64,000 bases of DNA from Polyangiales bacterium (GCA_044229975.1 JBGARZ010000025.1:88714-152713); one strand, 5' to 3'; counted from the stretch's first letter, positions 2,023 through 29,496 are shown. A program made the numbers and translations. Notes: generated from the letters alone by a model not told the origin.

Positions 2023-2023
2023 G

Positions 2024-11819: not shown

Positions 11820-12044
11820 ATGAACCCCACCGAGACCCTGCTCGACGTCCGCGGCATGAACTGCGGGTCGTGCGTCCGCCACATCTCCGAGGCCCTCGAC
11901 GCGCTCGACGGCGTCGAGGAGGTCTGCCCCTCGCTGCCCGACAAGACCGTTCTCGTCCGGCACGACCCGGCGCGGGTGAGCGCCGAGCAGCTCGCCGACG
12001 CGCTCACCGCCCGGGGCTACCCCGCCGCCGCGCGTGCCGCGTGA
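11820..12044 (+). CDS. copZ: HMA-domain copper chaperone
   Basis: 74 aa with GMNCGSC metal-binding motif; AGGAG RBS upstream. Confidence 0.9.
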   Translation: MNPTETLLDVRGMNCGSCVRHISEALDALDGVEEVCPSLPDKTVLVRHDPARVSAEQLADALTARGYPAAARAA

Positions 12045-12054
12045 ATCGACTCCG

Positions 12055-12101
12055 ACCGGGTCACAGGTCGGCCGCCCGGCCCTAAGAGCCTGTGACCCGG
12101 T
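12055..12101. repeat. 13-bp inverted repeat (possible copZ terminator or operator) overlapping a GGTCAC-N17-CTAA promoter-like motif
   Basis: ACCGGGTCACAGG (12055-12067) pairs with CCTGTGACCCGGT (12089-12101). Confidence 0.65.
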
Positions 12102-12105
12102 TCGC

Positions 12106-12131
12106 TGTAATCCCCACCCACCACGCGCGTC
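12106..12131 (+). promoter_or_regulatory. Putative ECF promoter TGTAA-N17-CGTC upstream of the lipoprotein-TolC-MCO operon
   Basis: GCTGTAA-tccccacccaccacgcg-CGTCTGCC. Confidence 0.72.
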
Positions 12132-12147
12132 TGCCGCCACGAAGCCC

Positions 12148-12408
12148 ATGAACCTCTTGATCCCACGCGTTCTCATCCTGGTCGGTGTGACCGCCCTCCC
12201 GCTCGGGTGCGGAGGACGCGAGGTGCCTGTGCGCTTCGGCGAGCAGTCCGCCCTCTCGTCGGGCGCTCGTGAGGCGCCGGTCGCTGACCCCACGGTGGCC
12301 CTCGCGGGCGACCCGCCCCTCCCGGGCGAGCCCACCGGGGCCTGGTCCGGCCTCGCGGCGGACGCGGGCGCCCCCCCTACCGGAGGAGGCCACGTCCATG
12401 CGCACTGA
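12148..12408 (+). CDS. Small lipoprotein with C-terminal His tail
   Basis: MNLLIPRVLILVGVTALPLGC signal/lipobox; ends GGGHVHAH; overlaps the TolC start. Confidence 0.6.
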   Translation: MNLLIPRVLILVGVTALPLGCGGREVPVRFGEQSALSSGAREAPVADPTVALAGDPPLPGEPTGAWSGLAADAGAPPTGGGHVHAH

Positions 12409-13828
12409 GCGCCTCCTGCCGGCCGCCTTGGCGCTGCTGCTGCCGCTCACCGGGTGCGCGACGACGTCGTTCTCCTCCGATCTGCGGCGCGTCGAGCAGC
12501 TCTCCCACTCGCCCATCCCCCTACGCGTCGCGGACAACCCCCCCGAAGACCACGACCCGGCGGTCACGCGGGAGGTCCTCGCCCGCCCGCTCACGGCCGA
12601 CGCCGCGGTGGGGGTGGCCTTCCGCAACAACCGGCACCTGCGCGCGTCGCTGCGCGATCTCGGCGTAGCGCGTGGCTGGCTCGCCCAGGCTGGCACGCTC
12701 CCCAACCCCGCCATCGAGTTCGACGTGCGCTACCAGACTGACCGCTCGCAGCCCCTCCAGGGCGACGTGCGCCTGGAGTTCGGGCTGACGCGAGCGATCC
12801 TCACGACGCAGCGGGCGGGCCTCGCGCGGGCGGAGCTGGAGACGGCGCAGGCGCGCGTCGCAGGGACGGTGCTGGAGACGGGCTACGCGGTGCGCGTCGC
12901 CTTCTACGCGGTGCAAGCCTCCGAGGAGCGGCTCGCGGCCGCCCAGCAGGCGCTGGACGCCTTCGCGGCTGCGCGTGACGCGGCCCGCGCGCTCCACGCG
13001 GCGGGCAACATCAGGACACTCGACCTCTCGGTGCAGGAGGCGGCCTACGAGACCGCGCGCATCACGGTGGCGGAGATCGAGCTGGAGCGACTCGACCGCC
13101 GCGAGCACCTCCAGCGCCTGTTGGGGCTCCACGGCGACGCCACCGAGTGGACCCTCGCGGAGAGCCTACCCCCCGCGCCCGAGGCCCTCTCGCTGGAGGC
13201 GATGACCGAGACGCGCGCGCTCGAAGCCAGCCTCGACCTCGCGGCCCAGCGCGCGAACCTCCAGGCCCTCGCCCGGCGCGTCGGCCTCAGCCGGGCCGAG
13301 GGGTGGCTGCCCGACATCACGGTGGACGCGCACGCCGAACAAGACGGCAACTCCGTGGAGGTCGGCGGCGGGGCGCGTGTCACGCTCCCGATCTTCGACC
13401 AGCGTCGGGGGGCCACGGCCGCCTATGGTGCGCAGTTCGACGCCGCGCTTGAGCGCTACTACGCCAGCGCCGTGGACCTGCGCTCAGCCCTGCGCTCGGC
13501 CCGCAACCGCCTGCGCTCGGCGCACGCCCGCACACGGCAGTACGACGCCGTCATCGTACCAGCGCGCGAGCGTGTGCTGCGCGAGACGCTGCTCCAGTAC
13601 AACGCCATGCAGGTCTCGGTCTTCCAGCTGCTTGAGGCACGGCGCGAGCTGCTCGACGCCACGCTCCGCCGCGCCGAAATCCGCCGCGAGTTCTGGACCG
13701 CCACCGCGGGCACCGTGGCCCTCTTCGCCGGGCGCCAGGTGGGCGCGGCGGAGCACACATCCGATGCCACCGAGTCCATGTCCGCCACGTCCATGGGCGC
13801 GAGCGGTGCGTCCGCAGGAGGCCATTGA
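12398..13828 (+). CDS. TolC family outer-membrane protein (copper-resistance type)
   Basis: Lipobox LTGC, GTLPNP, LPIFDQRRG, YNAMQVSVFQLLEARRE; GGAGG RBS. Confidence 0.87.
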   Translation: MRTERLLPAALALLLPLTGCATTSFSSDLRRVEQLSHSPIPLRVADNPPEDHDPAVTREVLARPLTADAAVGVAFRNNRHLRASLRDLGVARGWLAQAGTLPNPAIEFDVRYQTDRSQPLQGDVRLEFGLTRAILTTQRAGLARAELETAQARVAGTVLETGYAVRVAFYAVQASEERLAAAQQALDAFAAARDAARALHAAGNIRTLDLSVQEAAYETARITVAEIELERLDRREHLQRLLGLHGDATEWTLAESLPPAPEALSLEAMTETRALEASLDLAAQRANLQALARRVGLSRAEGWLPDITVDAHAEQDGNSVEVGGGARVTLPIFDQRRGATAAYGAQFDAALERYYASAVDLRSALRSARNRLRSAHARTRQYDAVIVPARERVLRETLLQYNAMQVSVFQLLEARRELLDATLRRAEIRREFWTATAGTVALFAGRQVGAAEHTSDATESMSATSMGASGASAGGH

Positions 13829-13832
13829 AACC

Positions 13833-15194
13833 ATGAACCGACGATCCTTTCTCCAAGCGGGCAGTGCGGCGACTGCGCTGGGGCTCATGACCCGTGCGGA
13901 GCGGGCGGAGGCGCAGACCCACGAGGGTCACGGCGCGCCCGATGCCCCGGCGACGGGGCAGACACCACCGCCGCCAGCGACCTCCGCCGCGATCGCACGT
14001 CGCTTCCCCGCGGGGCAGCCCGGAGTGACGGTGCCGAACGGGGGCACTCTCCCTCTCCGCCTGGTGGACGGGGTGAAGGTCGGCCACCTGGTGGTCGAGG
14101 CGTTCCCCAACGAGTTCGCGCCGGGGCTCACCGCGGAGGTGTGGGGCTACAACGGCACGACGCCGGGACCGGTGATCGAGCTGGTCGAGGGCGACCGTCT
14201 GCGGATGTACGTGACCAACCGGCTACCCGAGCCGACGACGGTGCATTGGCACGGCATCGTTCTGCCCAATGGCATGGACGGCGTGAGCGGCCTCAACCAA
14301 CGCCCCATCCCGCCGGGCGAGACGTGGATGTACGAGTTCACGCTCCGGCACCCGGGCACGTTCATGTACCACTCGCACTTCGACGAGATGACCCAGATCG
14401 CGCTCGGCGCGGTGGGCATGATCGTCGTCCACCCGCGCCAGGCGCGCGGCCCGCGGGTCGATCGGGACTTCGTGCTGATGGCGCACGAGTGGAAGATCGA
14501 GGCGGGTGCTCACCGCCCCGACCCCAACGCGATGAACGACTTCAACGTCCTCACCTTCAACGGCAAGGCGTTCCCGAGCACGGCGCCGCTGCTCGTGGGG
14601 AAGGGCGAGCGGGTGCGCATCCGCCTGGGCAACCTCGGGCCGATGGACCACCACCCGATCCACATCCACGGCCTCTGGTTCCACGTCACGGCGACCGACG
14701 GCGGCTACGTGCCGGCGAGCGCGCAGAAGCCCGAGACGACGGTGCTGGTGCCGGTGGGAGCGACGCGGGTGATCGAGTTCGTGCCGCCCGAGTCAGGCGA
14801 CTGGGCGATGCACTGCCACATGACCCATCACGTCATGATGCAGATGGCTCATGGCCTGCCGAACATGGTGGGGATGAACCCGGCGGCGTTGGAGCGACGC
14901 ATGAGCCGGGTGATGCCCGAGTACATGACCATGGGGCACAGGGGCATGGGCGGCATGGGCGAGATGCGGATGGAGATCCCGCCCAACAGCGCCCCGATGC
15001 GCGGTGGCATGGGGCCGCACTCGTACATCGACATGGGCGGGATGTTCACCATCCTGAAGGTGCGCGACGACGTCACCACCGCCGACCCGGCGGGGTGGTA
15101 CCAGGCGCCCGCCGGGACGGTGCCCACGGCGGCACAAGAGGCGCGGCTGCGGGCTGACGGCATCGACGTGGCGCGGACCTATCGGCCGGGGTGA
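13833..15194 (+). CDS. Tat-exported multicopper oxidase with Met-rich C-terminus
   Basis: MNRRSFLQ twin-arginine signal; HWHG, MYHSH, HPIHIHG and HCHMTHH copper motifs. Confidence 0.92.
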   Translation: MNRRSFLQAGSAATALGLMTRAERAEAQTHEGHGAPDAPATGQTPPPPATSAAIARRFPAGQPGVTVPNGGTLPLRLVDGVKVGHLVVEAFPNEFAPGLTAEVWGYNGTTPGPVIELVEGDRLRMYVTNRLPEPTTVHWHGIVLPNGMDGVSGLNQRPIPPGETWMYEFTLRHPGTFMYHSHFDEMTQIALGAVGMIVVHPRQARGPRVDRDFVLMAHEWKIEAGAHRPDPNAMNDFNVLTFNGKAFPSTAPLLVGKGERVRIRLGNLGPMDHHPIHIHGLWFHVTATDGGYVPASAQKPETTVLVPVGATRVIEFVPPESGDWAMHCHMTHHVMMQMAHGLPNMVGMNPAALERRMSRVMPEYMTMGHRGMGGMGEMRMEIPPNSAPMRGGMGPHSYIDMGGMFTILKVRDDVTTADPAGWYQAPAGTVPTAAQEARLRADGIDVARTYRPG

Positions 15195-15264: not shown

Positions 15265-15753
15265 TCAGCCGACGCGCCTCATGCGTTTTGCGTAGATGAC
15301 CTTGTCGTCTCCGTCTGCGTAGAAGTCCGGCACGCGTCCGCACGCGGAGTACCCGTGCTTCTCGTAGAAGCGCCGCGCCCGCGCCGTCGGTGGCAAGGCG
15401 CTCGTCTCGATCACGAGAATCCGACCACCCCGGGTGCTCACTTCTGACTCGACGGAGCGCAACAGCGCATCGCCGATGCCCTGACCGTGATGGGCAGGGG
15501 CCGCGCCGATCCACCAGAGGTCCCACACGCGGTCGGCCTTCTCGTTCGAAGAGAAGTACGCCCATCCGAGCGGCGGTCAGGCCGGACCCTCGGACCACAC
15601 CCACGCCAGATGATCGGGACCCAAGCGACCGGCGTGAATCTCATCGAGCGTCGCCCTGAGCAGGAGGTCCGCTTCGTCGGCTTGGAAGAGCCCGGTCGAA
15701 ACGGCCAGCGAGACCAGGGCGGGTGTGTCGTCGGGGGCAGCGGGGCGCATCAT
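15265..15753 (-). pseudogene. GNAT acetyltransferase interrupted by an in-frame TGA at 15577-15579
   Basis: The two ORF-track fragments are in one frame: ...WSEGPA*PPLGWAYFS...WIGAAPAHHGQGIG...RRFYEKHGY. Confidence 0.8.
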
Positions 15754-15858
15754 GGCCGCGACTACGGAACCCAATCACCGGCAGTTACACGCGATCGCTG
15801 CTTGGAGTCGCGTGGTGCGCCGAGACGATCGCGGGAGGGCCCTACCGACAGGGGCCAG

Positions 15859-16443
15859 TCAGGGAAGGACGCGGACCACGCCCGCCATCCCGACGTGTCC
15901 GTGGGTGTTGCAGTAGAACGGGTAGAACCCGGCGCCGGGGAAGGTCACCGCGTAGGTCGTCCCCACGCGCTGCGCGTCGATGGGGCTCGGGGTTGTGGCG
16001 CCCGCGCTCGACCCGTGCGGCACGCCGGGGATCAGCGGGTGCGTGGTGAAGCTCATCGAGAAGGTCACCGACTGCCCGGTACGGATGGTGAGACAGCGCG
16101 GCGTGTAGCCCGTGGTGCCGCGGGGTACCACCGTGCGCTCGGCGTCGTCGGCGCTGCGGTCTACGTAGTTCGCGGCCCGGCAGTCGTTGAGCAGGGGCAC
16201 TACCGTCGAAGCGTCCGCAACTGTCCCCGCGTCGGTCGCGGCATCCTGGTCGGTGGTCGCGACGTCGACGGCTGTCGGCTGGTCCGTGGCGGTGCCGACG
16301 TCGGTCGTCCCAACGTCCGAAGTCCCGACGTCGGCCGCGTCGTGACCCTCGTGGGCGGCCGCGTCGGTCGTGTCGTGTGCCATGTCGCCGCAGCCGGCGA
16401 ACAGAGGAAACAGGGCGAGGACGAGGGTCATTCGAGCGGGCAT
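15859..16443 (-). CDS. Lipoprotein with C-terminal plastocyanin/cupredoxin (type 1 copper) domain
   Basis: Lipobox FAGC, Asp/Thr-rich linker, His...YCNTHGHVGM ligand set. Confidence 0.85.
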   Translation of the reverse strand: MPARMTLVLALFPLFAGCGDMAHDTTDAAAHEGHDAADVGTSDVGTTDVGTATDQPTAVDVATTDQDAATDAGTVADASTVVPLLNDCRAANYVDRSADDAERTVVPRGTTGYTPRCLTIRTGQSVTFSMSFTTHPLIPGVPHGSSAGATTPSPIDAQRVGTTYAVTFPGAGFYPFYCNTHGHVGMAGVVRVLP

Positions 16444-16478: not shown

Positions 16479-17903
16479 TCAGGGCTCCACGCGGACGGTG
16501 GCCATCATCCCGTGCTCGATGTGCTCAAGGATGTGGCAGTGGTACATCCAGTGGCCGGGGCGCTCGTCGGGGCGGAACGCGATGCGCACCCGCTCCTTGC
16601 CACGCAGCTGGATCGTGTCCTCCCACGAGCGCTCGGCCTCGTCCGCGCCGTTGCGCGACACGACCTGGAAGAAGAACCCGTGCAGGTGGAACGGGTGCTC
16701 CATCTCGCTCGCGTTGACGAGGTCCCACACCTCGGTGTTGCCCACGCGCGCGACGACGTCCGGCACGTCCGGGTAGGACCGGTCGTTGATGGTGAACACC
16801 ACCTGCTCGCGGTCGCGATCGATGTACTCGTTGAAGGTCACCGTGCGCGGCGCGATGCCTGCCGTGACCAGCGGCTCGACCCGTATGCGGGGCGCGGGGG
16901 CGGCGAGTGTTGGCAACGCCGAGTCGGGCGCGTAGCGGAGCCGCAGGACGTCCGCCGCCTCGGTGAGACCAGCGCCGTGGCCGCGGGCGTAGGGGAGGTT
17001 GCGCAGGGGCGCGGTCGTGCCCGGGCTGCCGACGCCGTCCACCAGGACGTCGAGGCGATCGCCAGGGACGAGAAAGAGCTCGTCGGACGTGCGTGGTGTC
17101 GCGACGGACCCTCCGTCGGTCCCCACCACGGTGAAGCGGTGCCCCGGGAGAGCGAGGCGGTAGAAGCGGGCGCTGCCGGCGTTCACGACGCGCCACCGCT
17201 GCCGCTGGCCCGCGCGGATCGGCAGCTCCGCGCCCGCGCGTCCGTTGACGAGCGAGACGGGACCCTCCCTGCCGCTGTGCTGCTCGACGAGGTCCCCGGT
17301 GGGCGCGATCTCCCCGTCCGACCCGACCAGGAGGTCGTCGAGCATGACGACGCCCTCGACGTCTGCGCGGGGTTCATGGTCGCCGCGCACCACGACCGCG
17401 CCGTAGAGGCCGCGCTCCATCTGTACGCTCTCGGTGACGTGCGGGTGGTACCAGAAGGTCCCCGCGTCCGGAACGGTGAAGCGGTACTCGAAGCTCGCGC
17501 CGGGGGCGACGGGCGGCTGCGAGTGGGGGCTGCCGTCCATCGACGCAGGCACCCGCACGCCGTGCCAGTGGATCGTCGTCGGCTGGTCGAGCCGGTTGGT
17601 GAAGTGCACGACCACGGTGTCCCCGGCGCGCGCCTCGATCGTGGGCCCGGGGACCATGCCGTTGTAGGTCATCGCTCGGACGCGCCGACCCGGCGAGTAC
17701 TCCCACTGACCGAAGCGCGCTTCGAGGTCGATCTCGACGACGCGCGGATCGGGGTTGCGGTCGGCGGCGGGCTCGACGCGGAGCGCCGCGGCCCAGGGGT
17801 CGGGGCCGGTGCGAGGCGCAGGCGGTGCCTCGGGGGCGTCGCCGCAGCCGACAGCTACGAACAGCGCGGAGAGGGTCCAGCGGAGGTGGGGCGCGAGAGG
17901 CAT
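16479..17903 (-). CDS. Three-domain multicopper oxidase (CueO/Cuo-like lipoprotein)
   Basis: HWHG, WYHPH, HPFHLHG, HCHILEHIEHGMM; lipobox AVGC. Confidence 0.93.
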   Translation of the reverse strand: MPLAPHLRWTLSALFVAVGCGDAPEAPPAPRTGPDPWAAALRVEPAADRNPDPRVVEIDLEARFGQWEYSPGRRVRAMTYNGMVPGPTIEARAGDTVVVHFTNRLDQPTTIHWHGVRVPASMDGSPHSQPPVAPGASFEYRFTVPDAGTFWYHPHVTESVQMERGLYGAVVVRGDHEPRADVEGVVMLDDLLVGSDGEIAPTGDLVEQHSGREGPVSLVNGRAGAELPIRAGQRQRWRVVNAGSARFYRLALPGHRFTVVGTDGGSVATPRTSDELFLVPGDRLDVLVDGVGSPGTTAPLRNLPYARGHGAGLTEAADVLRLRYAPDSALPTLAAPAPRIRVEPLVTAGIAPRTVTFNEYIDRDREQVVFTINDRSYPDVPDVVARVGNTEVWDLVNASEMEHPFHLHGFFFQVVSRNGADEAERSWEDTIQLRGKERVRIAFRPDERPGHWMYHCHILEHIEHGMMATVRVEP

Positions 17904-18373: not shown

Positions 18374-18400
18374 GGTCACGAAACGTCGCGGCGGAACTAG
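18374..18400 (+). promoter_or_regulatory. Putative ECF promoter GGTCAC-N17-CTAG (copy 3)
   Basis: Upstream of the MNIO precursor operon. Confidence 0.7.
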
Positions 18401-18460
18401 ACAGGGATCCGCCGAAGTACCCGCGGCCGTCCGCCGCGCGCCCGAAGGAGCGAAGACCTG

Positions 18461-18892
18461 ATGAACAAAGAGACCCGAGCGAAGTTGCTGGTGATGGTAT
18501 CCGCGGCCTTTGGGGTCGCCGCGGTGGAGGGCTGCGCGAGCAACCCGTCCATGATGGCGCAGCCGCCCGCAAGCTCGCAGTCGGCTGACCCCGCACCCGC
18601 CACGACGCCTGCGCCCGCCGCGCAGGTCGGCACCGGTCCGACGCAGACCCCGAGCTCGACGGCCCCTGCGCCCGCCTCGGCCCCACAGGGAGCGGCCACG
18701 GGTCAGGCCATGAGCTGCGGCCAGGACGGCAACTGCGGCGCGCACATGGGCTCCTCGTCGTCGCCCGCACCGGGCACCACGGCGGCCCAGCCGACCCCGA
18801 CGGCGGCCCCGACGCCGGCCACCACACCGACGACGGCTCCCGCCACGGCTCCAGCAACGGCGCGGCCCCACCAACACAACCACGCACACTGA
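18461..18892 (+). CDS. Putative MNIO-modified RiPP precursor (lipoprotein-like, SCGQDGNCG core)
   Basis: AAGGAG RBS, signal with VEGC, Pro/Thr/Ala-rich linkers flanking MSCGQDGNCGAHM, His tail; 3 bp before the DUF692 gene. Confidence 0.75.
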   Translation: MNKETRAKLLVMVSAAFGVAAVEGCASNPSMMAQPPASSQSADPAPATTPAPAAQVGTGPTQTPSSTAPAPASAPQGAATGQAMSCGQDGNCGAHMGSSSSPAPGTTAAQPTPTAAPTPATTPTTAPATAPATARPHQHNHAH

Positions 18893-18895
18893 TCG

Positions 18896-19729
18896 ATGGC
18901 GCACGTCGAGGGCGTCGGCCTGGGCCTGCGGGCCCCGCTGTTTCGCGACCTGATGTCGCGGGCGCCCGCGGCGTTGCGCTGGGTCGAGGTCTCTCCCGAG
19001 AACCATCTCGGGCGCGGCGGCTTCTTCGAGGCGATGCTGGCGGAGACCCGCGCGCGCTACCCGGTGGTGACGCACGGCGTAAGCCTCGGGCTCGGCGACC
19101 GCGAGCCGCCAGCGCGCGACCTGCTGCGCGCGATGCGGGGCTTCCTCGAAGCCGTGCAGACCCCCTGGCACAGCGATCATCTGTGCTTCGGCGCGGTCGA
19201 CGGCGCCCACCTCCACGACCTCCTTCCCCTACCGTTGACCGAAGAGAGCGTCGGTCGTGTGGTGGACCGGGTTCGGCTGCTCGAAGACGCGCTCGGTCTC
19301 CCCATCGCCGTCGAGAACATCTCCTGGTACGCGCACCCCGGCGAGGCGGAGATGGACGAGGCCGACTTCCTCGGCGAGATCACCGCGCGCAGCGGCGCCC
19401 TCCTCCTGCTCGACGTCAACAACGCCTACGTCAACGCGCGCAACCGCGGGGGAGACGCGCGGGAGTTCATCCGTCGCATCCCGGCCGACCGTGTGGTGCA
19501 GATGCACGTCGCCGGGCACCTCGTGGCCGCCGACGGGTTTCGCCTCGATACGCACGGCGAGGCTGTCTGCGACGATGTGTACGGGCTGCTCGCGTACACC
19601 CTGTCGCGCACTGGGCCCGTGCCGGTTCTGTTGGAGAGAGACGGCGGCTTTCCCCCGTGGGACGAGCTCGTCGCGGAGCTCGAACGACTCGACGCCATCG
19701 TCCGCGCTTCAACACAGGCAGCGCCTTGA
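18896..19729 (+). CDS. DUF692 family multinuclear non-heme iron oxidase (MNIO)
   Basis: GVGLGLR, EVSPEN, HGVSLGLG, SDHLC, DLLPLP, ENI, LLDVNNAYVN, MHVAGH, DTHG and LLERD motifs. Confidence 0.95.
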   Translation: MAHVEGVGLGLRAPLFRDLMSRAPAALRWVEVSPENHLGRGGFFEAMLAETRARYPVVTHGVSLGLGDREPPARDLLRAMRGFLEAVQTPWHSDHLCFGAVDGAHLHDLLPLPLTEESVGRVVDRVRLLEDALGLPIAVENISWYAHPGEAEMDEADFLGEITARSGALLLLDVNNAYVNARNRGGDAREFIRRIPADRVVQMHVAGHLVAADGFRLDTHGEAVCDDVYGLLAYTLSRTGPVPVLLERDGGFPPWDELVAELERLDAIVRASTQAAP

Positions 19730-20457
19730 GCGGGCTCGACGCGCACCAGCGGGCCATCGCCCGGCTCACACTTGGGGCCGAACTCGACGAGGCGTCGCTG
19801 GCCTCGCTAGGCGGCGACCGCGTTCGGTGGCTGGTGTACCGCGACCTCGTGCGCAACCGGCTCTGGTCGCTGCTGCTCGAAGCGCTGCCGCGCACCTTCG
19901 CGGCGGCCGGCAGCGCGCGCTTCGGGGGGTGGTTTACCCGCTACCTCGACGAGGAGGCGCCGCGCACGCACTTCGTCCGCGACGTGGCGCCGGCCTTCGG
20001 TCGGTGGGTGCGCGCGGCGGAGGCCGAGGCCCTGGCGTCACCGTCGCCGTGGCTGCCCGAGGCGCTGTCCCTCGACCTGGCCGAGCATCACGTCGGCCTC
20101 TCGGCAGCGCGCGTCGACGCATCGCGACTCACCGACTTCGCGATGGACCTCCCCGCGGCGCTCGATCCGACACACCAGCGGCTGCGCCTCTCGTGGACCC
20201 CGGAGGGCGCGCCCGATGCGCGGGCACTGCTGCTGTTTCGTCACCCGGAGCGCCACTCTGTGGAGACGCTCGCGCTCACCCCGATGGCGGCCGACGTGCT
20301 CGACGCGATGGACGACGGGGCGACGCCCGCGGCCGAGGCCGTGCGCGCGGTGCTGGCACGCTACGACGTGGTCGCGGGGTCGGCGTTTGTGGAGAGCTTC
20401 GCGGGCCTGCTCGCCGAACTGATGGAGCGCGGTGTCTTGAGGGGCTCGCTGCGGTAG
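19726..20457 (+). CDS. DUF2063-like MNIO partner (RiPP recognition) protein
   Basis: TTG start overlapping the MNIO stop; YRDLVRNRLWSLLLEALPRT and PWLPEALSLDLAE resemble DUF2063. Confidence 0.8.
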   Translation: MSGLDAHQRAIARLTLGAELDEASLASLGGDRVRWLVYRDLVRNRLWSLLLEALPRTFAAAGSARFGGWFTRYLDEEAPRTHFVRDVAPAFGRWVRAAEAEALASPSPWLPEALSLDLAEHHVGLSAARVDASRLTDFAMDLPAALDPTHQRLRLSWTPEGAPDARALLLFRHPERHSVETLALTPMAADVLDAMDDGATPAAEAVRAVLARYDVVAGSAFVESFAGLLAELMERGVLRGSLR

Positions 20458-20461
20458 GGCG

Positions 20462-20815
20462 TTACATGGCGTGGCGGAAGGCCGTGAGGTCGACGCGCAC
20501 GCGGGTGTCGTTGCTCACCTTGAGCCGCAGCAGCGCCGGAACGCCGATCCCGTAGTCGGTGGGCGACAGGTTGGGAAGGTCGACGGTGAAGCGCCCGGCG
20601 GTCGAGGTGGAGATGCCGTCGACGGTTTCGAGCGGTGCGTCGGAGGTGAAGAGTACGCGCGACTCGCCGTTCGTGCGGAGGTCGAAGCGCTGCACGCCGG
20701 TGGGCGCGGCGGCGGGCGCCATGGTGGGAGGCGTCGGCGGTGTCTACGCGCCGAGCGGAGCGGACATCGAGAGGAGACTGATCGCGACGAGCGAAGCGAG
20801 AGGGCTGATCTTCAA
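20462..20815 (-). pseudogene. YceI family protein, nonsense codon plus apparent internal deletion
   Basis: GGAGGT RBS, signal peptide, in-frame TAG at 20744-20746; SDAPLETVDG joined almost directly to DYGIGVPALLRLKVSN. Confidence 0.65.
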
Positions 20816-20859
20816 GGGCGACCTCCGACGGTCTTGGTGGTGGGCGCGGTCGACGTCCG

Positions 20860-21483
20860 TCAGCGTACGTGGGTGAAGACGAAGTCCCGCGGGGCGCTCA
20901 CGTGGCAGCCGACGCAGATGGTGCGCGCGGGGCCGCTCGTGCCGAGGCCGTCGGCGACGTAGCGGGTGCCGATGCGCTCGAACCAGTACCAGTTCTCGCC
21001 CCCGGTACCGACCGCGACCTTGAGGTAGACGGCGTAGCCGGTGACCACGCCCGCGCTGGAGAGCAGCTCCTTCACGGCGGCCGCGCCGACGGGGTAGGGG
21101 CCGTCGCCGCTCGACCCGCTCAACAGCTCGTTGGAGCAGATGCGGTTGATGCCGTGAGGCGACGGCGAGCGCGACGCGTGCGGTGCGGGCTCACAATGCC
21201 AGGAGCGGTAGTGCCCCGCCGTGAGCCATGCTTCCATGTCCACGCGCCCCGAGGACGGCGGCGTTTGGGGCCCGACCATCGGCGGTGGAGACTGACCCGC
21301 GTCCGTCGGAGCGCCGACCTCGGTGACCGCGGACTGATCGATCGTGGCATCCGCGTATCTCGCCGACGAAGCATCGATGGTCTGTGTCGGAACGTCCGTC
21401 GCGATCGTGCCATCGGCTGTCCCGCAGCCCACGGCCAGCAACGCCAGCGCCCCGGCTGCCAACACCCTTCGTCGATCAACCAT
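20860..21483 (-). CDS. Lipoprotein c-type cytochrome, cytochrome P460-like
   Basis: Lipobox AVGC; YPVGAAAVKEL, GYAVYLKV, WYWFE and C-terminal CVGCH. Confidence 0.7.
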   Translation of the reverse strand: MVDRRRVLAAGALALLAVGCGTADGTIATDVPTQTIDASSARYADATIDQSAVTEVGAPTDAGQSPPPMVGPQTPPSSGRVDMEAWLTAGHYRSWHCEPAPHASRSPSPHGINRICSNELLSGSSGDGPYPVGAAAVKELLSSAGVVTGYAVYLKVAVGTGGENWYWFERIGTRYVADGLGTSGPARTICVGCHVSAPRDFVFTHVR

Positions 21484-21943
21484 TGGCGCGCGCCGCCTCG
21501 GTCACCGCGGTGTCCGGGTGCACCATGAGCTCGCCCGCGGCGACGGTCACCCGGTAGTGCGGCAGGGTGGCGGTGGATGGCGCTCGCGTCACGGCCCCGT
21601 TGCCGTCGTACTCCGAGAAGTGGTTGGGGCAGCGGGTGTTGCCCGTCGTGCTGACGGAGGTGCAACCCGTCGGTGTCGCACACGCCGCGCCGTCGCGAAA
21701 CGCGATCTCAGTCCCCTCGTGCGTACACAGCGTCGAGTAGGCGAAAAAGCCTCCGGCGTCGCGCCCCACGATCACCTTCTGCGCGGCGTACAGCTTCCAC
21801 ATCCCGACGGCGTGATCGGCCACGCGCCCGCCGCTGAAGGGCGTCGTCGGCATTGCCGCGTCGCCGCAGCCCACGGTCACGCCCGCGACCCCCAGCACAC
21901 ACAGGAACGTCCTGCGCTCCAAGCGCTTCGTGTCTTCATCCAT
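21476..21943 (-). CDS. Rieske [2Fe-2S] lipoprotein (Tat)
   Basis: RRTFL signal, TVGC lipobox, CTH...CPNH motifs. Confidence 0.85.
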   Translation of the reverse strand: MDEDTKRLERRTFLCVLGVAGVTVGCGDAAMPTTPFSGGRVADHAVGMWKLYAAQKVIVGRDAGGFFAYSTLCTHEGTEIAFRDGAACATPTGCTSVSTTGNTRCPNHFSEYDGNGAVTRAPSTATLPHYRVTVAAGELMVHPDTAVTEAARANG

Positions 21944-21971
21944 GTTGGTTCTTCCTCGTCGCGTGTCGCGG

Positions 21972-22955
21972 CTACGGCGCGACCATCGGGCAGTTGACGG
22001 TGACGGGCAGAGGACCGGCCACGTTGGCGAGCGCCGTGTTCCAGTCGCGCACTCCGCCGAAGCCCGCGAGGTTGCCCCGCTGATGCGACCACAGCGACGA
22101 GTACCCGGGTTGTCCCGGCAGCACCTGCACCACGTTGTGGGTCATGCCGTCGGCCTCGGTCTCAAAGCCCATGGAGGGGTCCGTGTCGTTGCGGAAGATC
22201 ACGATGATGCCCGCGCTCGGGACGCGCCCATTGGCGGTCACCTGGAGGTTGGTCTCGAACTGCATCAGCGGCGCGATCATGCCGCGCACCCAGCCCCGGA
22301 ACCCGGTGACCACGTTGCCCTGAAACCGCAGGGTCGCCGTCGAGCCCGCGGGCACCACCGCCCAGTCGACGATGCGCGTGGTGAGCGTTGCGGTGGCGTC
22401 GCCCTCGGCCACAGCGGCCAGTACGTCGGCTTCGCTCGTGAGCGAGTTGACGTTGTAGCCCTCGTGCGTGCGCACCTCGGTGATGCGCATGAAGTCGTTG
22501 TACCCGGTGTCACCCGGGACGCCCGTGAGCACCGGGAGCTGCCCCGGGATGGCTTGTCCGTTGGCGTCGAGGATCATGTACGCGCGGCCGGGCACCACCG
22601 GGACGATGTCGAGCGAGTAGTACAGGACGCGCTCGCCGCCTGGTCCGAACGAGCGCACGCCGAAGAGCTGATCGAAGTGGATGGGCGCGTTGGGCGCGGG
22701 CACGACCGGTCGCACGTTGGCCGTGTCAAACGCGGGCGCGCTGCGCTTGAAGAGCGTCGCGAAGCTGTCCTGGAAGCGGTCGACGGACACGATCGCCGCG
22801 GTGTCGGGGTTGACCGTCGCGCGGTCGGACGTGGTTCCACAGTGCGCGAGGAAGACCGAGAAGCCTGCGAGGCAGAGGGCGTGGCGCGGCGATCGAAGCG
22901 TGGGCGTGGCACACATCGGAGAGGGGACACCTTCGGTGTTCGCGGGGCTCTCCAA
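21972..22955 (-). CDS. Hypothetical lipoprotein with internal repeat
   Basis: LAHC lipobox; related segments VPGDTGYNDFM and LPGQPGYSSLW; ends VNCPMV; start may be ATG 22916. Confidence 0.7.
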   Translation of the reverse strand: MESPANTEGVPSPMCATPTLRSPRHALCLAGFSVFLAHCGTTSDRATVNPDTAAIVSVDRFQDSFATLFKRSAPAFDTANVRPVVPAPNAPIHFDQLFGVRSFGPGGERVLYYSLDIVPVVPGRAYMILDANGQAIPGQLPVLTGVPGDTGYNDFMRITEVRTHEGYNVNSLTSEADVLAAVAEGDATATLTTRIVDWAVVPAGSTATLRFQGNVVTGFRGWVRGMIAPLMQFETNLQVTANGRVPSAGIIVIFRNDTDPSMGFETEADGMTHNVVQVLPGQPGYSSLWSHQRGNLAGFGGVRDWNTALANVAGPLPVTVNCPMVAP

Positions 22956-22976
22956 TGAGCGTCGCGTGCCGACGTC

Positions 22977-23002
22977 TACGAGCGCGCGCGCTGACGGTTA
23001 CA
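22977..23002 (-). promoter_or_regulatory. Putative ECF promoter TGTAA-N17-CGTA
   Basis: GCTGTAA-ccgtcagcgcgcgcgct-CGTA upstream of the lipoprotein-Rieske-cytochrome operon. Confidence 0.55.
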
Positions 23003-23017
23003 GCGTGTGTGGCGGTT

Positions 23018-23141
23018 GGGGTCGCGGCCGATGCCCTGCTCGCTCACCCACATCGGCAGGCGCGCCCCGCGGTGATCGACCGCGTTGTCCTGCTCGTCGA
23101 CGCCCAGGAGGTGCGACTTGGCCTCGCAGCGGAAGGGCACC
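23018..23141 (-). pseudogene. Remnant of a GH31 (alpha-glucosidase/YihQ-like) gene
   Basis: HLLGVDEQDNAVDHRGARLPMWVSEQGIGRDP resembles the GH31 N-terminal GEQ...EQGxGR motif; no intact ORF. Confidence 0.4.
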
Positions 23142-23536
23142 CCCGGGCTCGCACGGGGCAGGCATCCCTTACAGCGATGCACGCGGCTCGACCTCATCAG
23201 GAGACACGCGGCGCGCCCGCAGCGAGGAGGTGTCGTCGGTCCCGCGGGCTTCGAGCACGATGACGTCACCGTCCATCGTGAGGCGGGTGATGGTTGCGGG
23301 CTGCCGCGTGGCGACGTCGCGGTGGGCGAAGGTTCACTGACCGCAGGCGCTTTGCACGGTCTCGTCGTAGGTGCTCGCGAACACCAGCGGTCGGTCGGCG
23401 CAGAGCAGCACGCCCAGCTACCGCAAGCTCGACGCCGCCACCCGCGGTCGGACCCGCAGCGCTCCGACTGTGTCGTCGGCAGGTGATGGCCGACCACCGC
23501 AGGTTTTGGGAGACCCGATGTGAGACTCTTGTCACG

Positions 23537-23992
23537 ATGACAGCGTTCGGAGCTTCGTCAGGATCTGCTCCCTTACTTCGCGCGTCGATGCCCCTCGCGC
23601 TGCTGTTGGGCACGGCTTGCTCGTACACCGTCGGCGCTGCATCGGTCCGTCGGGACGCGGTCGTGATGGACGAGCCAACGCTGGCGACACCCATGACCGA
23701 GGCAGGAAGCCGCTCACTTGACGCGACGCCGGTCGATCTGCCAACGACGAGCGCGCTGGACGCAGCACTCGCGGACGCGGGCCTGCTCGATAGCCCGGAC
23801 ATCCTTCTGCCCGTAGACCCGTTCATCGGCGACTGCATCTCCGACGTCCCCTACGGCGTCTACTTCCCCGACGGCGGCCTCGCTGGAGCGCGACCCGCGC
23901 GCTGTTCAGAGCTTCGCGGGATGATCTGCTGTCGCTTCGAGAACCTGATCTACGAACGGGACGAGGACCGAATCGACCACGGTCGGGTCTGA
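23537..23992 (+). CDS. Hypothetical lipoprotein
   Basis: LLLGTAC lipobox, acidic DA linker, four C-terminal Cys. Confidence 0.55.
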   Translation: MTAFGASSGSAPLLRASMPLALLLGTACSYTVGAASVRRDAVVMDEPTLATPMTEAGSRSLDATPVDLPTTSALDAALADAGLLDSPDILLPVDPFIGDCISDVPYGVYFPDGGLAGARPARCSELRGMICCRFENLIYERDEDRIDHGRV

Positions 23993-24296
23993 GGGCGCGC
24001 GACCCTATCCCCACAGCTCTCGGTGCCGGGTCTCCGGCCTTTCGCCCTCCGCCTCGCCGACACCCTTCGCCGACGACTGCCTCACTGGACTCATCACCGG
24101 CTATGGCGATGAGTGGCGCGCCCGTCGCCCGCTGCTCTGCTCCGATCTGCCAGGCCGGGTCTGCTGTCAGGAGTCAGAGATCATCGAGCCCATCCGGTCG
24201 GGCCCCGGTGCTGTCGTCGATGACGGCCGATCGTGCGTCCCACGGGGCGATTGTCACTCGACTGGCCGCGATCGGTAGCGACCGAATGGCACGCGC

Positions 24297-25976
24297 TCAG
24301 CGGCTGGTGCGGACATCGACGACGACGTACCGCAGGCGCACGTCCGAGTTGTCGGTCGATGGGAAGCCACTGGCGGCGACGTGCAGGTGGTCGCCGCGGC
24401 CCTGGAGAGTAAATCCCTGGATGTCGGCGTGGACCGAGATCGGCAGGCGGTACCGCACGGCGTGGGCGCCGGTGCGCGGATCGACCTCCTCGATGACCGC
24501 CTCGGCGCCATCGCGCGCCGAGACGAGCGAGAGGTCGCAGCTACAGAACTCGCGACCGCACCGCGGGGTGACCGCGAACTCCCGATCGGTGTGCAGGCGC
24601 AGGTAGCCGAGCCAGACCCGGCCGTCCCGAGTCTGCGCCAACGCGTGGTGGGAGACGGCCGGTCCGACGCCCTGCGCGTGACAGGTGGCACCCTCGCGAC
24701 AGCCGGTCGGCGGCATGAAGCCAGTACTCGTCATGGATGGGCAATCGCTGTGCGTGACGCTCTCTCCTGCCGAGATGGGCACGTCTCGCAGGCCACTCGG
24801 CCCGGCCAAGAAGAGATGCAACTCGGACTCGGACAGGGCGAGGGTGACGAGCGGTGCGCCCGGCGCTCCGTGATCCGACGGGACGATCATCGTACCGCCG
24901 CCTGCGGGACCCGACGGGAGGCGAGTGAGTACGACCGGAGGAGAGCCCACGCGCTGGTAGGCGTAGTCGTCGCCTCCGAGGCGTTCGAGGCGTCGCAGGA
25001 TGTACGGCTCTCCGGCCAGGTCGGTCGCCAGCGACGCGCCGATCGTTCCCGGTACGGCCGATCGGCTCCAGCTACCGTCGGGCGAGCGCGTCGCGAGGGT
25101 GAAGGTCAGGTCGGTGGCGACGTGAGAGAGCACTCGGACCTGGCCGAGCGGGTCGATGATCGCGTCGTCGAAGTAGGGCCTTGGCGTGCCACCAGGTGTG
25201 ACGTCCTCGGCCGACCAGGCGCCATCCCTGCGCGTGAAATGCGCGAGGTTGAGTCCGGGACCGAGCTCGCTGACGAGGTGAACCGAACCGTCCGGTCCGC
25301 AGAGAACGGCGGACAGCCGCGACGGTCCCATGAGGAGCTGGGTGTTCGCGACGAAGGGATCCGCGGCGACGCTGCTGCCTCCGCCCGGATCGAAGGTCAC
25401 GAGCTGTTTGTGATCCCCATAGCCGCTGTTGGAGAGCAGCGCGTAGCCGCGCCCGTCGTCGGCGGCCGCTGCGGTGAACCCCCAGGAGTATTCGTTGCAG
25501 CGCACCTCCCAGGCCGCGGCGGTCGGGCATGCCCCGCACCCGCAGGACAGGGCCTCTGGCGAGAGCGGCGCGACCACACAGGTGCCTGCGGGCGGACGCG
25601 CGACGTCGGGCGGCGCCATCGTCGCAGAACAGTCGGCGGGCGTTGTCCCGCCATCCACGCCGGCATCCGTGTGTGTCACGGGCGCGACGTGCACCGCGTC
25701 GATCACCGCCCCGTCGGAGCCCTCGATCGTCGCGTCCGAGGCCACGTCGAGATCCCGGGCGCCCCGGTCATCTGGCGTCGTCACGTCGGGGACCACGACA
25801 TCGACGATGGCAACCTCCACGAGCGCAGGTCCGTCTACGAGACCGACGTCCGCGATCGTGGGCTCACGGTCGCTCGTGGTCAGCGTCCCGGCGTCGTTCC
25901 GTGCCGCGACCCCTTGAACGCAGCCCATCTGCGCGACCCACCAGAGCGCCCAGGTCCATCGCTTCATGTAGCGCAC
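24297..25976 (-). CDS. Cys-containing lipoprotein, probable beta-propeller
   Basis: MGC lipobox-like, acidic DAG linker, repeated DGSVHL/GQVRV/DGRVWL...W strands. Confidence 0.65.
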   Translation of the reverse strand: MRYMKRWTWALWWVAQMGCVQGVAARNDAGTLTTSDREPTIADVGLVDGPALVEVAIVDVVVPDVTTPDDRGARDLDVASDATIEGSDGAVIDAVHVAPVTHTDAGVDGGTTPADCSATMAPPDVARPPAGTCVVAPLSPEALSCGCGACPTAAAWEVRCNEYSWGFTAAAADDGRGYALLSNSGYGDHKQLVTFDPGGGSSVAADPFVANTQLLMGPSRLSAVLCGPDGSVHLVSELGPGLNLAHFTRRDGAWSAEDVTPGGTPRPYFDDAIIDPLGQVRVLSHVATDLTFTLATRSPDGSWSRSAVPGTIGASLATDLAGEPYILRRLERLGGDDYAYQRVGSPPVVLTRLPSGPAGGGTMIVPSDHGAPGAPLVTLALSESELHLFLAGPSGLRDVPISAGESVTHSDCPSMTSTGFMPPTGCREGATCHAQGVGPAVSHHALAQTRDGRVWLGYLRLHTDREFAVTPRCGREFCSCDLSLVSARDGAEAVIEEVDPRTGAHAVRYRLPISVHADIQGFTLQGRGDHLHVAASGFPSTDNSDVRLRYVVVDVRTSR

Positions 25977-26076
25977 GCCTCAGCCTCCGCCTCTGCGGAT
26001 ACGGTCGCGCCGTCGGCGTGCCGTCGCAAGGGGCGCCGGGCGCACAACGGTGCAACTGCGCTGCCGTCCCTCGGCG

Positions 26077-27051
26077 TCATCGTCGCCGCATCGCCGCGAT
26101 CGCGGCTTCGAGTGCGCGGATGCGACGGTCCTGAGCCTGCACGGTGGCCACCAGCATGCTGGTGTAGCCGTAGAGATCGACCGCGCTCCGGTCCGGCTCC
26201 CGCGCGTAGCTAGCTGCGGGCTGGTCTTCGATGATGAAGCCCAGGCGTCGGCGGCCCGCCAGGAGCGGCTCGGTGTACTCGTAGGTCGCGAGCCGTGTCG
26301 CCAGCACCTCGCGGGACAGGCGCTCGGCCTCCGGCGCGGTGAGGTAGGCGATGTCGCGCTTCGCCGCGCGGGTCGAGCGCGGGCAGCCGGCGGGCGAGTC
26401 GGCTGGGGTCCACAGCCCACCGACGCACCGACGCGCGCGGGCCGGCTCGCATCCGTAGTCGCAAGAGAGTCCCTCGGTTGCGCACACCGTCCCAGCGCGT
26501 GGACGCGCGGCCGGGCAGGGAGTCGCCGTACTGGGGGCGGCGCAGTGCCAGGTGCGCGGGCCGTCACAGCGCCCGATCGGGTAGCGGATGCAGTTGGTGC
26601 ATTCGCACGCCAGGCCCGCGTAGGCGCAGAACGCCCCTTCGACACTGCACGCTTGACCATCGGCCGCTTCGCGCGACGTGGGACAGGCCGCGGTGGGCAG
26701 CGGGTCGCAGGTCGCCGTCGCGATCGACCAGCGCGACCCCGAGCAGGTCGCGAAGGTGCGGCACTGCACCCGAGGGTCGTCGCCGAACTCGGACACCACG
26801 CCCTCCCGCGCGCAGCCGCTGCCTTCGCTCGGCACCGACGATGGACACGCGGGGATCACTCCCGCATCTGGGAGGCCGCCCCGATCCGTTGGCACTCCGA
26901 GGTCGGCGATGCCGCTGTCGGTCGTAGCAACGTCTACTGCGGCGCCCGCGTCGGCAGGTGCGGAGGTGTTGGACGTCGTCCCTACGCAGCCCGCTGCCCA
27001 GCCGCTCACGGCCAGCATCCACCCGAGATGAAGAGACGCCGCGATCCTCAT
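26077..27051 (-). CDS. Cys-rich lipoprotein with C-terminal Peptidase S74 (intramolecular chaperone) domain
   Basis: AAGC lipobox, three CP...C...C repeats, then STRAAKRDI (Ser-Lys dyad), YEY, LGFIIED and coiled-coil VQAQDRRIRALEAAI. Confidence 0.8.
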   Translation of the reverse strand: MRIAASLHLGWMLAVSGWAAGCVGTTSNTSAPADAGAAVDVATTDSGIADLGVPTDRGGLPDAGVIPACPSSVPSEGSGCAREGVVSEFGDDPRVQCRTFATCSGSRWSIATATCDPLPTAACPTSREAADGQACSVEGAFCAYAGLACECTNCIRYPIGRCDGPRTWHCAAPSTATPCPAARPRAGTVCATEGLSCDYGCEPARARRCVGGLWTPADSPAGCPRSTRAAKRDIAYLTAPEAERLSREVLATRLATYEYTEPLLAGRRRLGFIIEDQPAASYAREPDRSAVDLYGYTSMLVATVQAQDRRIRALEAAIAAMRRR

Positions 27052-27150
27052 GGCTCCGATCCTCCTTGCGAGCCGGGCGACCGTCGCCCGCGGTCGTCAT
27101 GTTCCGGTGCGACGTTCGAACGGTTCGGCCCTCCCGGTCGGGCCGCAACG

Positions 27151-28245
27151 CTATGGGCGACGGAAGGTCGTGCAGGTTCCGCTGCGGCACTCCACCGGGA
27201 TCGTGGTTGACGGGTCGGCGCTTGCGCCGTCGTCCGTCCTTGGCGGCCCGGCGGGGCAACCGCAGCCGGGATACATCGGTCTGCACACCGCTTCGGCGCG
27301 GTCGAAAGCCTCGCGCTGACCGGCGTTGATGCCCATCGCGCGCGAGTTGCCGCAGCAGTCGGTCTGGTGGACAGCTACCGCGCAGTCAGTCGCCGCGCCG
27401 CAGCTCCGGTCGAAGGCGGGGAACGATCCTCCGCTGGCCGGGCCGCACACGATCTCCGCGCCAGCGTCCACGCAGACCAGGCGCCCGCAGCTCGGCGGCT
27501 CGCAGGTGATCGGCCCTTCGTAGCGGCATCCTGGCGGCGGGGCGGCGCAGTCGATCACGCAGGGCTCGGCGTCCGGTGCGCCGGCGTCGGATGCGCCAAG
27601 GTCGGTCGCGCCCGCGTCGGTCGCGCCCGCGTCGGGCGGGCACGCGAGGCGGGTGCAGACCGCGCGTCCGCTCGCCTCGCACGAACAGGTGTTGCAGCCG
27701 TCGCCCGCCGGGCAGCTTGCGCCGATCGCGCAGGTGCGTCCGTCGCGCAGGACACAGGTCATTCCGGCATCGATCGCGCACGCGCGCTCGGTGCATGCCA
27801 GCAGGCGTCCCGCCGAGCATGTGCAGGTGTTGCAGCCGTCGGGCGCCGGGCACGCCGCGCCCTCCGCGCACGTTCCTCCGTCGGGCAGCGCGCACGCCGC
27901 GCCAGCGTCTGGCGTGGCTGGACAGTCGCGCAGGTACCACCCGCAGGCGTCGCCCGCGCGCACGCCGCAGGTCGGGCCCCCGACAGAGCCGTCGGCGCAG
28001 CGGATGTTCGGGGCGCCGAATGGGTTGGGCCCGCACGTCGCGGCGTCACACATCGCGGCGTCTCGCGAGACGACGACGTCGGCGGGAAGGCCCATGGCAT
28101 CTCGCCGTACGCCTCCATCGACGGCGCCTGCGTCGCCCGCGGTGGTGACGACGCCGCCGCACCCGACACTCGCTCCGAGCGAGGGGAATCCCAGCGCCAG
28201 CGCCGCCGCGTAGACCAACGAGAATGGACGCCCGCGCTGTGGCAT
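27151..28245 (-). CDS. Cys-rich lipoprotein with two pacifastin-like protease-inhibitor domains
   Basis: SVGC lipobox; DGCNTCTCSAGRLLACTERAC and DGCNTCSCEASGRAVCTRLAC. Confidence 0.75.
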   Translation of the reverse strand: MPQRGRPFSLVYAAALALGFPSLGASVGCGGVVTTAGDAGAVDGGVRRDAMGLPADVVVSRDAAMCDAATCGPNPFGAPNIRCADGSVGGPTCGVRAGDACGWYLRDCPATPDAGAACALPDGGTCAEGAACPAPDGCNTCTCSAGRLLACTERACAIDAGMTCVLRDGRTCAIGASCPAGDGCNTCSCEASGRAVCTRLACPPDAGATDAGATDLGASDAGAPDAEPCVIDCAAPPPGCRYEGPITCEPPSCGRLVCVDAGAEIVCGPASGGSFPAFDRSCGAATDCAVAVHQTDCCGNSRAMGINAGQREAFDRAEAVCRPMYPGCGCPAGPPRTDDGASADPSTTIPVECRSGTCTTFRRP

Positions 28246-28454
28246 TGGAACCGTCGCTCCCTTCGTGCGAGGAGCGTAGAGCGCGATGGCGCGGTTCCGC
28301 CACTGGATGCGGACCGAGGGCTGTCGCCGCGTAGGTCGGCGGCGCGCGTGGACCGCGAGGTCCAGGAGGCGCAGAGTCTCTCTGGTCGTCGGGCGCTGTT
28401 CGGCGCTGTCGTCGAGGAAACCTCCCGTCACGGTCGAGAGCTCATGGGGTCGCG

Positions 28455-29237: not shown

Positions 29238-29496
29238 GCGTTCGCCCGCGGCCGTCACATGATCGGGCGCGGTCGGCAGCGGCTATCGCGCGGCTGCGCG
29301 TCTGCGGATCCACGTCGAAGCCTTCCGGCGCGCCCGCATCTTTGAGGTACGCGAGCGCCTCACCGACGCAGTCTCCGTCTTCGTCGCGCTCGACGATCAA
29401 GGCGCCGAGCGTTCTGTCCCGCCGATGCGATCAGACTCAGGTTTGGCCCTTGATGGTCGCTGATTGGACGGCTTGAGGTGCAAGAGCTCCTGACCA

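Follow-up and report, generated by a model that had tools for sequence, protein, structure and literature searches.

A precursor–MNIO–DUF2063 operon in a myxobacterial copper island, predicted to encode a lipid-anchored peptide of the captophorin class

Within a 64,000 nucleotide stretch of DNA from a Polyangiales bacterium (GCA_044229975.1, JBGARZ010000025.1:88714-152713; hereafter the window) lies an operon encoding, in order, a small predicted lipoprotein precursor, an MNIO (DUF692) enzyme and a DUF2063/PME1 partner protein, all tightly packed on the plus strand (Table 1). Reading of the open reading frames (ORFs) confirmed the operon and the tight or overlapping spacing described in the first-pass annotation, with the MNIO gene starting 3 nt past the precursor stop and the partner gene, whose TTG start is at 19726, sharing its first 4 nt with the end of the MNIO gene. 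The 143-aa precursor, its VEG|C signal end and its HQHNHAH tail were likewise found as described, whereas the start given for the feature (18374) has been moved to that of the precursor at 18461. The operon is situated among copper genes in a metal island that occupies the left half of the window. In gene content it belongs to the captophorin (MNIO-PME1) class, and it lacks the characters that define EGKCG peptides, bufferins and chryseobasins.

Table 1. Features of the operon and of the surrounding metal island (positions counted from the first nucleotide of the window).
Feature	Position	Strand	Basis or remark
Ribosome-binding site AAGGAG	18445..18450	+	10 nt upstream of precursor ATG
Precursor, 143 aa, Pro/Thr/Ala-rich, predicted lipoprotein	18461..18892	+	ORF; dN/dS; family alignment
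Predicted signal peptide II, lipobox-like end VEG|C25	18461..18535	+	Cys25 conservation
Core AMSCGQDGNCGAHM, two Cys-Gly pentamers (Cys86, Cys92), predicted 5-thiooxazole sites	18707..18748	+	Pair motif; chemistry by analogy
His tail HQHNHAH, possible extra metal ligands	18869..18889	+	Sequence
MNIO (DUF692), 277 aa	18896..19729	+	PF05114; NCBIfam; trees
DUF2063/PME1 partner, 243 aa, RRE-like C-terminal part	19726..20457	+	TTG start
RND efflux set	1-4398		
ECF sigma factor, internal CxC, C-terminal Cys-rich tail	7535-8080	-	Directly after ATPase
P1B ATPase with CPC motif	8119-10470	-	
HMA (CopZ-like) protein, outer-membrane efflux protein, Tat-exported multicopper oxidase	11820..15194	+	
GNAT-like acetyltransferase gene split by in-frame stop	15265-15774	-	Family name presumed from motif
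Cupredoxin-domain protein, lipoprotein-like N-terminus	15859..16443	-	
Multicopper oxidase	16479..17903	-	Divergent from operon
Broken YceI-family gene	20462..20840	-	Premature stop near 5' end

The AAGGAG sequence preceding the precursor gene is present in four of four aligned upstream regions, and Cys25, the putative site of lipidation, is invariant across nine of nine near homologues in the family alignment. Compared with its paralogue on contig C29 of the same genome, the precursor has a ratio of nonsynonymous to synonymous substitution (dN/dS) of 0.15 over its whole length and 0.07 over signal plus core; against the paralogue on C19 the ratio was 0.38, in a short comparison of 45 codons. 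The corresponding values are 0.16-0.17 for the MNIO and 0.15 for the partner. The precursor, MNIO and partner genes are all under purifying selection, and the low ratios of the precursor indicate that this low-complexity ORF is a selected gene.

The family assignments of the first-pass annotation were borne out by profile searches, in which the MNIO scored 298.7 bits against PF05114 (cut-off 25) and the partner narrowly exceeded the DUF2063 (PF09836) cut-off (27.7 vs 27.2 bits), with weaker matches to NGO1945_C and PqqD. The precursor has no Pfam match at E<=0.01 and no NCBIfam match at E<=0.1 and is therefore neither a DUF2282 protein nor of EGKCG type; a protein search with it returned 7248 candidates, none at E<=0.001, and was uninformative given the low complexity of the query. 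Twelve motif positions of the MNIO, including those that we take to be the iron ligands and an Asp equivalent to FonB Asp249 (by way of the 3BWW alignment), are invariant in 84 of 84 aligned rows. The first of the two Arg compared with FonB is also retained in enzymes of the clade to which the window MNIO belongs (FonB residue numbers are those of PMC13097082, mapped by motif). Both Lgt and LspA, which would be needed for lipidation and cleavage of the precursor, are encoded in the host genome.

The clade was delineated from a genome scan with the MNIO, in which 127 loci were confirmed and the 80 best retained; the titles of these are mostly Myxococcota (Polyangiaceae, Labilithrix, Sandaracinaceae, Nannocystaceae), and six are of a Melainabacteria type. 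With further loci added, and with duplicates or near-duplicates (L083, L082, L006, L111) and truncated rows (L021, L064) dropped, 81 rows form a single clade in a quick tree (SH-aLRT 99). A script requiring a hydrophobic stretch followed by [GAS]C detected a lipoprotein-type precursor upstream of the MNIO gene at 63 of these 81 loci. The 18 misses comprise five precursors called by an earlier script (L008, L009, L011, L048, L054), five loci at contig ends, an apparently frameshifted precursor (L066), one without a lipobox (L094), and six loci (L004, L010, L017, L018, L019, L113) with no adjacent precursor. A profile built from 20 clade enzymes (E<=1e-100) matched 20 of 151 genomes of the phylum, and these matches are concentrated in the order of the window, with 18 of its 25 genomes positive (the host genome counted) and two of 126 outside it; the positive genomes of the order include ones of 2.7-4 Mb. 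In a look-up of database clusters, three of ten sequences were on record, under the names 'transcriptional regulator/hypothetical', 'low-complexity protein' and 'YceI-like'. The precursor of Labilithrix luteola, a cultured member, has the accession WP_205633960.1. An atlas search pointed to three Myxococcota clusters (0.90, 0.85 and 0.84), with recognition too low to be reliable, and these count as a lead only.

The core repeats of the family are short and conform to xx[S/G/T/A/N]C[G/S/A]. Among 297 core Cys, the preceding residue is Ser in 185, Gly in 38, Thr in 29, Ala in 20, Asn in 13, His in seven, Pro in three and Lys in one, and the following residue is Gly in 198, Ser in 62, Ala in 25, Lys in seven and Pro in five, so that Gly, Ser or Ala follows in 285; a close Cys pair is present in 60 of 63 precursors, these residue and pair shares being biased upward because the choice of precursor ORF relied on the Cys motif. 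Two core Cys are present in only eight of the 63 precursors and four or five in 33; of the same-genome paralogues, the one on C29 has four and the one on C19 five. The two-Cys core noted in the first-pass annotation is thus that of a low-valency copy and not a trait of the family, whose repeat-bearing precursors extend across most of the order. Spacing within the last Cys pair is CxxxxC in 48 of 62 precursors and CxxxxxC, as in the window, in 10, and many members have isolated pentamers upstream of the pair, as do EGKCG precursors. A His-rich end, with at least three His within the last 12 residues, is rare (three of 62 precursors).

Other arrangements were encountered in the course of the scan. 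The precursors of L001-L003 and L137-L139 carry a His/Gly/Cys-rich insert with nine core Cys and CxC motifs, and are located behind an ECF sigma and NrsF gene pair and before MutS2. Melainabacteria-type loci (L067, L069-L071, L077, L078) form a separate clade, in which the second Arg of the enzyme is preserved and the precursors have EGSCK repeats but are not lipoproteins; in one of them (L070) a YceI-like gene is found downstream. A second type of MNIO, represented in the host genome at C38:103852-104634 (L083) and by 17 related rows, scores 310.5 bits for BufB (cut-off 310) and has a DUF2063 partner but no recognisable upstream precursor; it is widespread in the family.

The relationship of the clade to characterized enzymes was examined using reference loci of the EGKCG, Buf1 and Buf2 types taken from plasmid records. 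A careful tree of 60 rows (27 of the 81 clade rows, the references and nine further rows) pairs the clade, at moderate support (91/88), with the EGKCG side, including the Neisseria gonorrhoeae enzyme, a side that consists of four reference rows, one of them probably of CxxxxC type. The bufferin (Buf1/Buf2) enzymes form a separate branch (99/93) with the clade outside it. The first-pass annotation described the core as divergent and without EGKCG repeats; a motif unrelated to EGKCG is not supported. True EGKCG precursors, such as that of N. gonorrhoeae, already include EGSCG and QGSCG repeats, and one of nine myxobacterial precursors passes the HvfA repeat model NF050137 (L068, 28.9 vs 19.5 bits), as do three of three controls, suggesting that the EGKCG pentamer has drifted to give this core; the window precursor itself matches neither NF050137 nor NF050188.

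The likeness to the EGKCG captophorins (oxazolin HvfABC, fontiphorin FonABC, gonophorin NgoABC) extends to the precursor-MNIO-DUF2063 gene order, an exported, unstructured precursor with Cys-Gly pentamers and EGSCG-type repeats, and the first Arg and catalytic Asp of the enzyme, and theirs is the nearest reference group in the tree. The myxobacterial family differs from them in that Lys almost never precedes Cys, the second Arg and Phe250 have been lost and the enzymes fall below the HvfB cut-off, in that a lipoprotein signal is the rule and the Pro/Ala/Thr tethers are long, and in having YceI or M61-like genes, and at 73 loci no DoxX, as neighbours. Bufferins of the Buf1 (DUF2282) and Buf2 types use the same enzyme pair, likely to form the same ring, and some Buf2 are predicted lipoproteins (10.1101/2024.03.18.585515). 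Unlike them, the window precursor has no DUF2282 and no conserved four- or six-Cys folded domain, only two core Cys where 6 or 12 would mark such a precursor. Chryseobasins, the products of ChrH/DybH, are distinguished by a CPxCGxG motif absent here, and the window MNIO reaches just 51 bits against the ChrH model (cut-off 600).

Three published groups come closer in the architecture of the precursor. The EGKCG precursor NedA of Neisseria dentiae (Lipo-NedABC, a DAG-RiPP) combines a lipoprotein signal with MNIO-modified Cys repeats, has been found by mass spectrometry to be triacylated with a loss of 4 Da per motif, and has been proposed to sequester copper at the membrane (PMC13056109). It has three true EGKCG motifs, whereas the myxobacterial family has Ser/Gly/Thr/Asn-Cys pentamers and an enzyme of a different clade; nevertheless, with NedA published, the lipidated, modified peptide inferred in the first-pass annotation is an already known concept. 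The same report describes 'cluster X', a set of uncharacterized lipoprotein precursors with a conserved CxxxxC (PMC13056109). The myxobacterial family may be this cluster, since the majority of its last Cys pairs share that spacing, although the window pair does not. The 'CxxxxC' family of Antoine et al. is alike in signal peptide, CxxxxC, MNIO and DUF2063, but 54% of its clusters carry Lactamase_B_2 (PMC12452194), which was found within 3 kb of none of 73 loci, and a locus of this layout (L118) groups with the EGKCG enzymes, outside the clade, in the careful tree.

The suggestion of a myxobacterial precursor family is supported, in that the precursors form one and are missed by the DUF2282, Buf2 and EGKCG profiles (the Buf2 comparison having been made without the original authors' profile). 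In PMC12452194, the main text makes no mention of Myxococcota, three Polyangia MNIOs are given by partner type only, and a table lists no Buf1, Buf2 or EGKCG precursor in Haliangium, Sorangium, Sandaracinus or Labilithrix, which have 2-5 MNIOs each. Such enzymes also figure in the captophorin data sets, where at least one similar precursor, that of Chondromyces apiculatus, is listed (PMC13097082). No description of the family was found in searches of the literature; the supplementary lists of PMC13056109, PMC12452194 and PMC13097082 may already contain it.

Linkage, conservation and intact motifs are direct observations on the operon. On these grounds and by analogy with characterized systems, its product is probably a lipid-anchored captophorin of the cell envelope, with copper buffered by 5-thiooxazoles formed at Cys86 and Cys92, so that the membrane-tethered, MNIO-modified copper chelator originally proposed is retained as the most likely product. 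All characterized MNIO-PME1 systems install 5-thiooxazole and their products generally bind copper; FonBC requires a small residue after Cys and two repeats, and tolerates Ala, Arg or Thr before it (PMC13097082). The window core offers both, with two pentamers and Cys-Gly at each site. In the cytoplasm, the MNIO-PME1 pair would bind the precursor and convert each Cys-Gly pentamer, with a loss of 4 Da per pentamer (8 Da in total) and the appearance of absorbance near 305 nm. Export by Sec, lipidation of Cys25 by Lgt and cleavage by LspA would then yield a 119-residue lipopeptide, whose 60-residue Pro/Thr/Ala tether may display the two rings, nearby His and Met residues and the His tail as a copper site; this would provide the island with a copper sink in addition to its P1B ATPase and multicopper oxidases.

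Several observations weigh against this interpretation. The Glu at position -2 of the lipobox is atypical. The MNIO scores below both NCBIfam cut-offs (HvfB, 272.5 against 360 bits; BufB, 271.3 against 310), and the approximately unbiased test does not reject a topology that places the clade with the bufferin enzymes (p=0.258). The equivalent of the second Arg, the specificity residue Arg16, is kept in only six of 84 rows, all in the Melainabacteria-type outgroup, and that of Phe250 in none, the window enzyme having Ala13 and Gly250 at these positions. Ser and Asn before Cys are not among the FonBC variants in the excerpts of PMC13097082. Finally, in flanks of 3 kb from the MNIO gene at 73 loci, a multicopper oxidase was found near two, a P1B ATPase with an HMA motif near four (two by tblastn, four by clustering), an ECF sigma with NrsF near four and DoxX near none. 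With regard to the specificity residues, covariation of the loss of Arg16 with loss of the pentamer Glu was considered and rejected, as Glu still begins 132 of the 297 pentamers despite the loss of both Arg16 and Phe250.

A copper island is confirmed around the window operon, as first reported, and the layout recurs in three other genomes of the genus (stretches repeating known loci being counted once), but such a context is found in few relatives, and placement in copper islands is mostly restricted to this genus. It could be that the thiooxazole lipopeptide is made but serves mainly in envelope or redox stress, or with other soft metals, acting with a YceI-fold protein or M61-like peptidase, and that the copper-island copies reflect late recruitment in one genus. 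This has in its favour the occurrence of clade enzymes in most sampled genomes of the order, small ones included, the rarity of copper genes as neighbours, the presence of CzcCBA-type efflux and phytochelatin synthase genes among clade neighbours, and the genes that do recur: a YceI-fold gene (a YceI-like lipoprotein or canonical YceI) is the commonest neighbour, at 38 of 81 loci, an M61-like peptidase gene is present at 24 of 81 (one weak), and among loci with full flanks one or the other is present in 45 of 56 and both in two, counts obtained with profiles built from these same neighbours. A role other than copper defence is nonetheless rather unlikely, given that the flanks extended just 3 kb and known bufferin clusters are likewise compact (10.1101/2024.03.18.585515), and that characterized thiooxazole peptides bind copper (PMC13097082). 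Moreover, the ECF sigma and NrsF pair that lies upstream of four close relatives of the window operon (L001-L004) resembles that of the copper-induced bufferins, which in Caulobacter are controlled by SigF-NrsF, and fits a copper regulon.

The YceI association has several forms. The YceI-like lipoprotein neighbour gave a structure model (pLDDT 87.6) that matches YceI structures at E 2e-8, whereas the PF05299 match of the M61-like peptidase is weak. YceI genes occur in at least five layouts, being upstream, downstream (as either of two sequence types), convergent, or at the position otherwise held by the precursor; the background is four matches in a 10-Mb genome, or about 0.3% per 7 kb, with loci of kin not being independent. 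No mention of YceI was found in the MNIO and bufferin literature searched. One scheme that would account for these neighbours, though an improbable one, is that the YceI barrel or the M61-like peptidase replaces DoxX in an order-wide branch of lipid-anchored captophorins and handles the tethered peptide. Under it, the barrel would take up the acyl anchor and escort or shed the peptide, or the peptidase would cut the tether to free the copper-loaded tip, giving the cell, if this is true, a tether-load-release route that rids the envelope of metal. At two loci (L147, L148), YceI, MNIO and partner genes form an operon and the precursor is about 2 kb away on the opposite strand. A stand-alone His/Cys-rich precursor (L144 200-2009) is divergent from a phytochelatin synthase gene and near a multicopper oxidase gene; L004 is the converse, with sigma, NrsF, MNIO and partner genes and no precursor.

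A different chemistry at the two Cys, with the terminal pair ring-closed as by ChrH/DybH, or one Cys modified and a disulfide or free thiol left, is very unlikely. The near-fixed spacing of the last pair and the departure from FonB at the Arg16 and Phe250 positions could be read in this way, but the ChrH score is far below its cut-off, the CPxCG motif is absent from the window precursor, the partner is a DUF2063 protein, and the isolated pentamers found upstream of the pair in many members are those of EGKCG-like substrates. There is similarly little chance that the window copy is a redundant, decaying paralogue that has lost a Cys pair and contributes little, as might be supposed from the lesions in nearby genes, the two further operon copies in the genome and a segment that bears the first Cys pair on C29 and is Cys-free here, because dN/dS is 0.07-0.17 in four of the five comparisons, the catalytic motifs, ribosome-binding site and gene overlaps are all intact, two-Cys precursors recur in the family and some of the island lesions may be assembly errors. 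A frameshift was considered as the source of the Cys-free segment and rejected, the other frames having no Cys-Gly pair.

With the lipid-anchored captophorin retained as the favoured product, its chemistry, anchor and copper role each have a published precedent, making the finding useful to the specialist rather than surprising. Captophorins have been described nearly exclusively in Pseudomonadota, and the family adds to them a group found in the majority of the genomes sampled from one myxobacterial order. EGKCG peptides with many repeats are prone to aggregation (PMC13097082), and the two-Cys precursors are natural substrates with just two sites on which copper binding by thiooxazole peptides could be studied. 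The clade additionally supplies enzymes that do without two proposed specificity residues, and YceI and M61-like genes are two candidate accessory genes for captophorins.

The metal island also includes a BlaR/BlaI-type pair and an ECF sigma factor that we take to resemble the metal-sensing CorE/ECF44 type. In its P1B ATPase, 19 residues of the CPC transmembrane segment are exactly repeated in tandem; three related ATPases in the genome lack this duplication, which represents either a recent mutation or an assembly error, and the YceI pseudogene has a 336-nt in-frame internal deletion relative to the intact, 236-aa copy on C19. The host genome has three operon copies and one distant MNIO gene; two of the three copies are located in copper islands, that of C29 being within a matching island and that of C19 not. 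The window is a mosaic, with copper genes 84-91% like C29 and the MNIO-partner-YceI segment 83-90% like C19, and the island as a whole (1-23450) is composed of stretches that share 73-91% identity with contigs C29, C19, C27, C32 and C15.

Immediately after the C29 copy is a DUF4142-DUF305 fusion gene (L082 12193-13377). The window operon is followed, at 20860-29240, by a series of small genes for lipoprotein-like products rich in Cys (a CxxCH protein, a Rieske protein, DUF7482 and several Cys-repeat proteins); the C19 copy, too, is accompanied by the CxxCH and DUF7482 genes, together with a fragment of a Rieske gene. An integrase gene is located at 32347-33345, in a stretch of slightly lower GC; a selenocysteine tRNA (tRNA-SeC) called by ARAGORN at 33234-33331 on the minus strand lies within the integrase ORF on the opposite strand and was taken as false.

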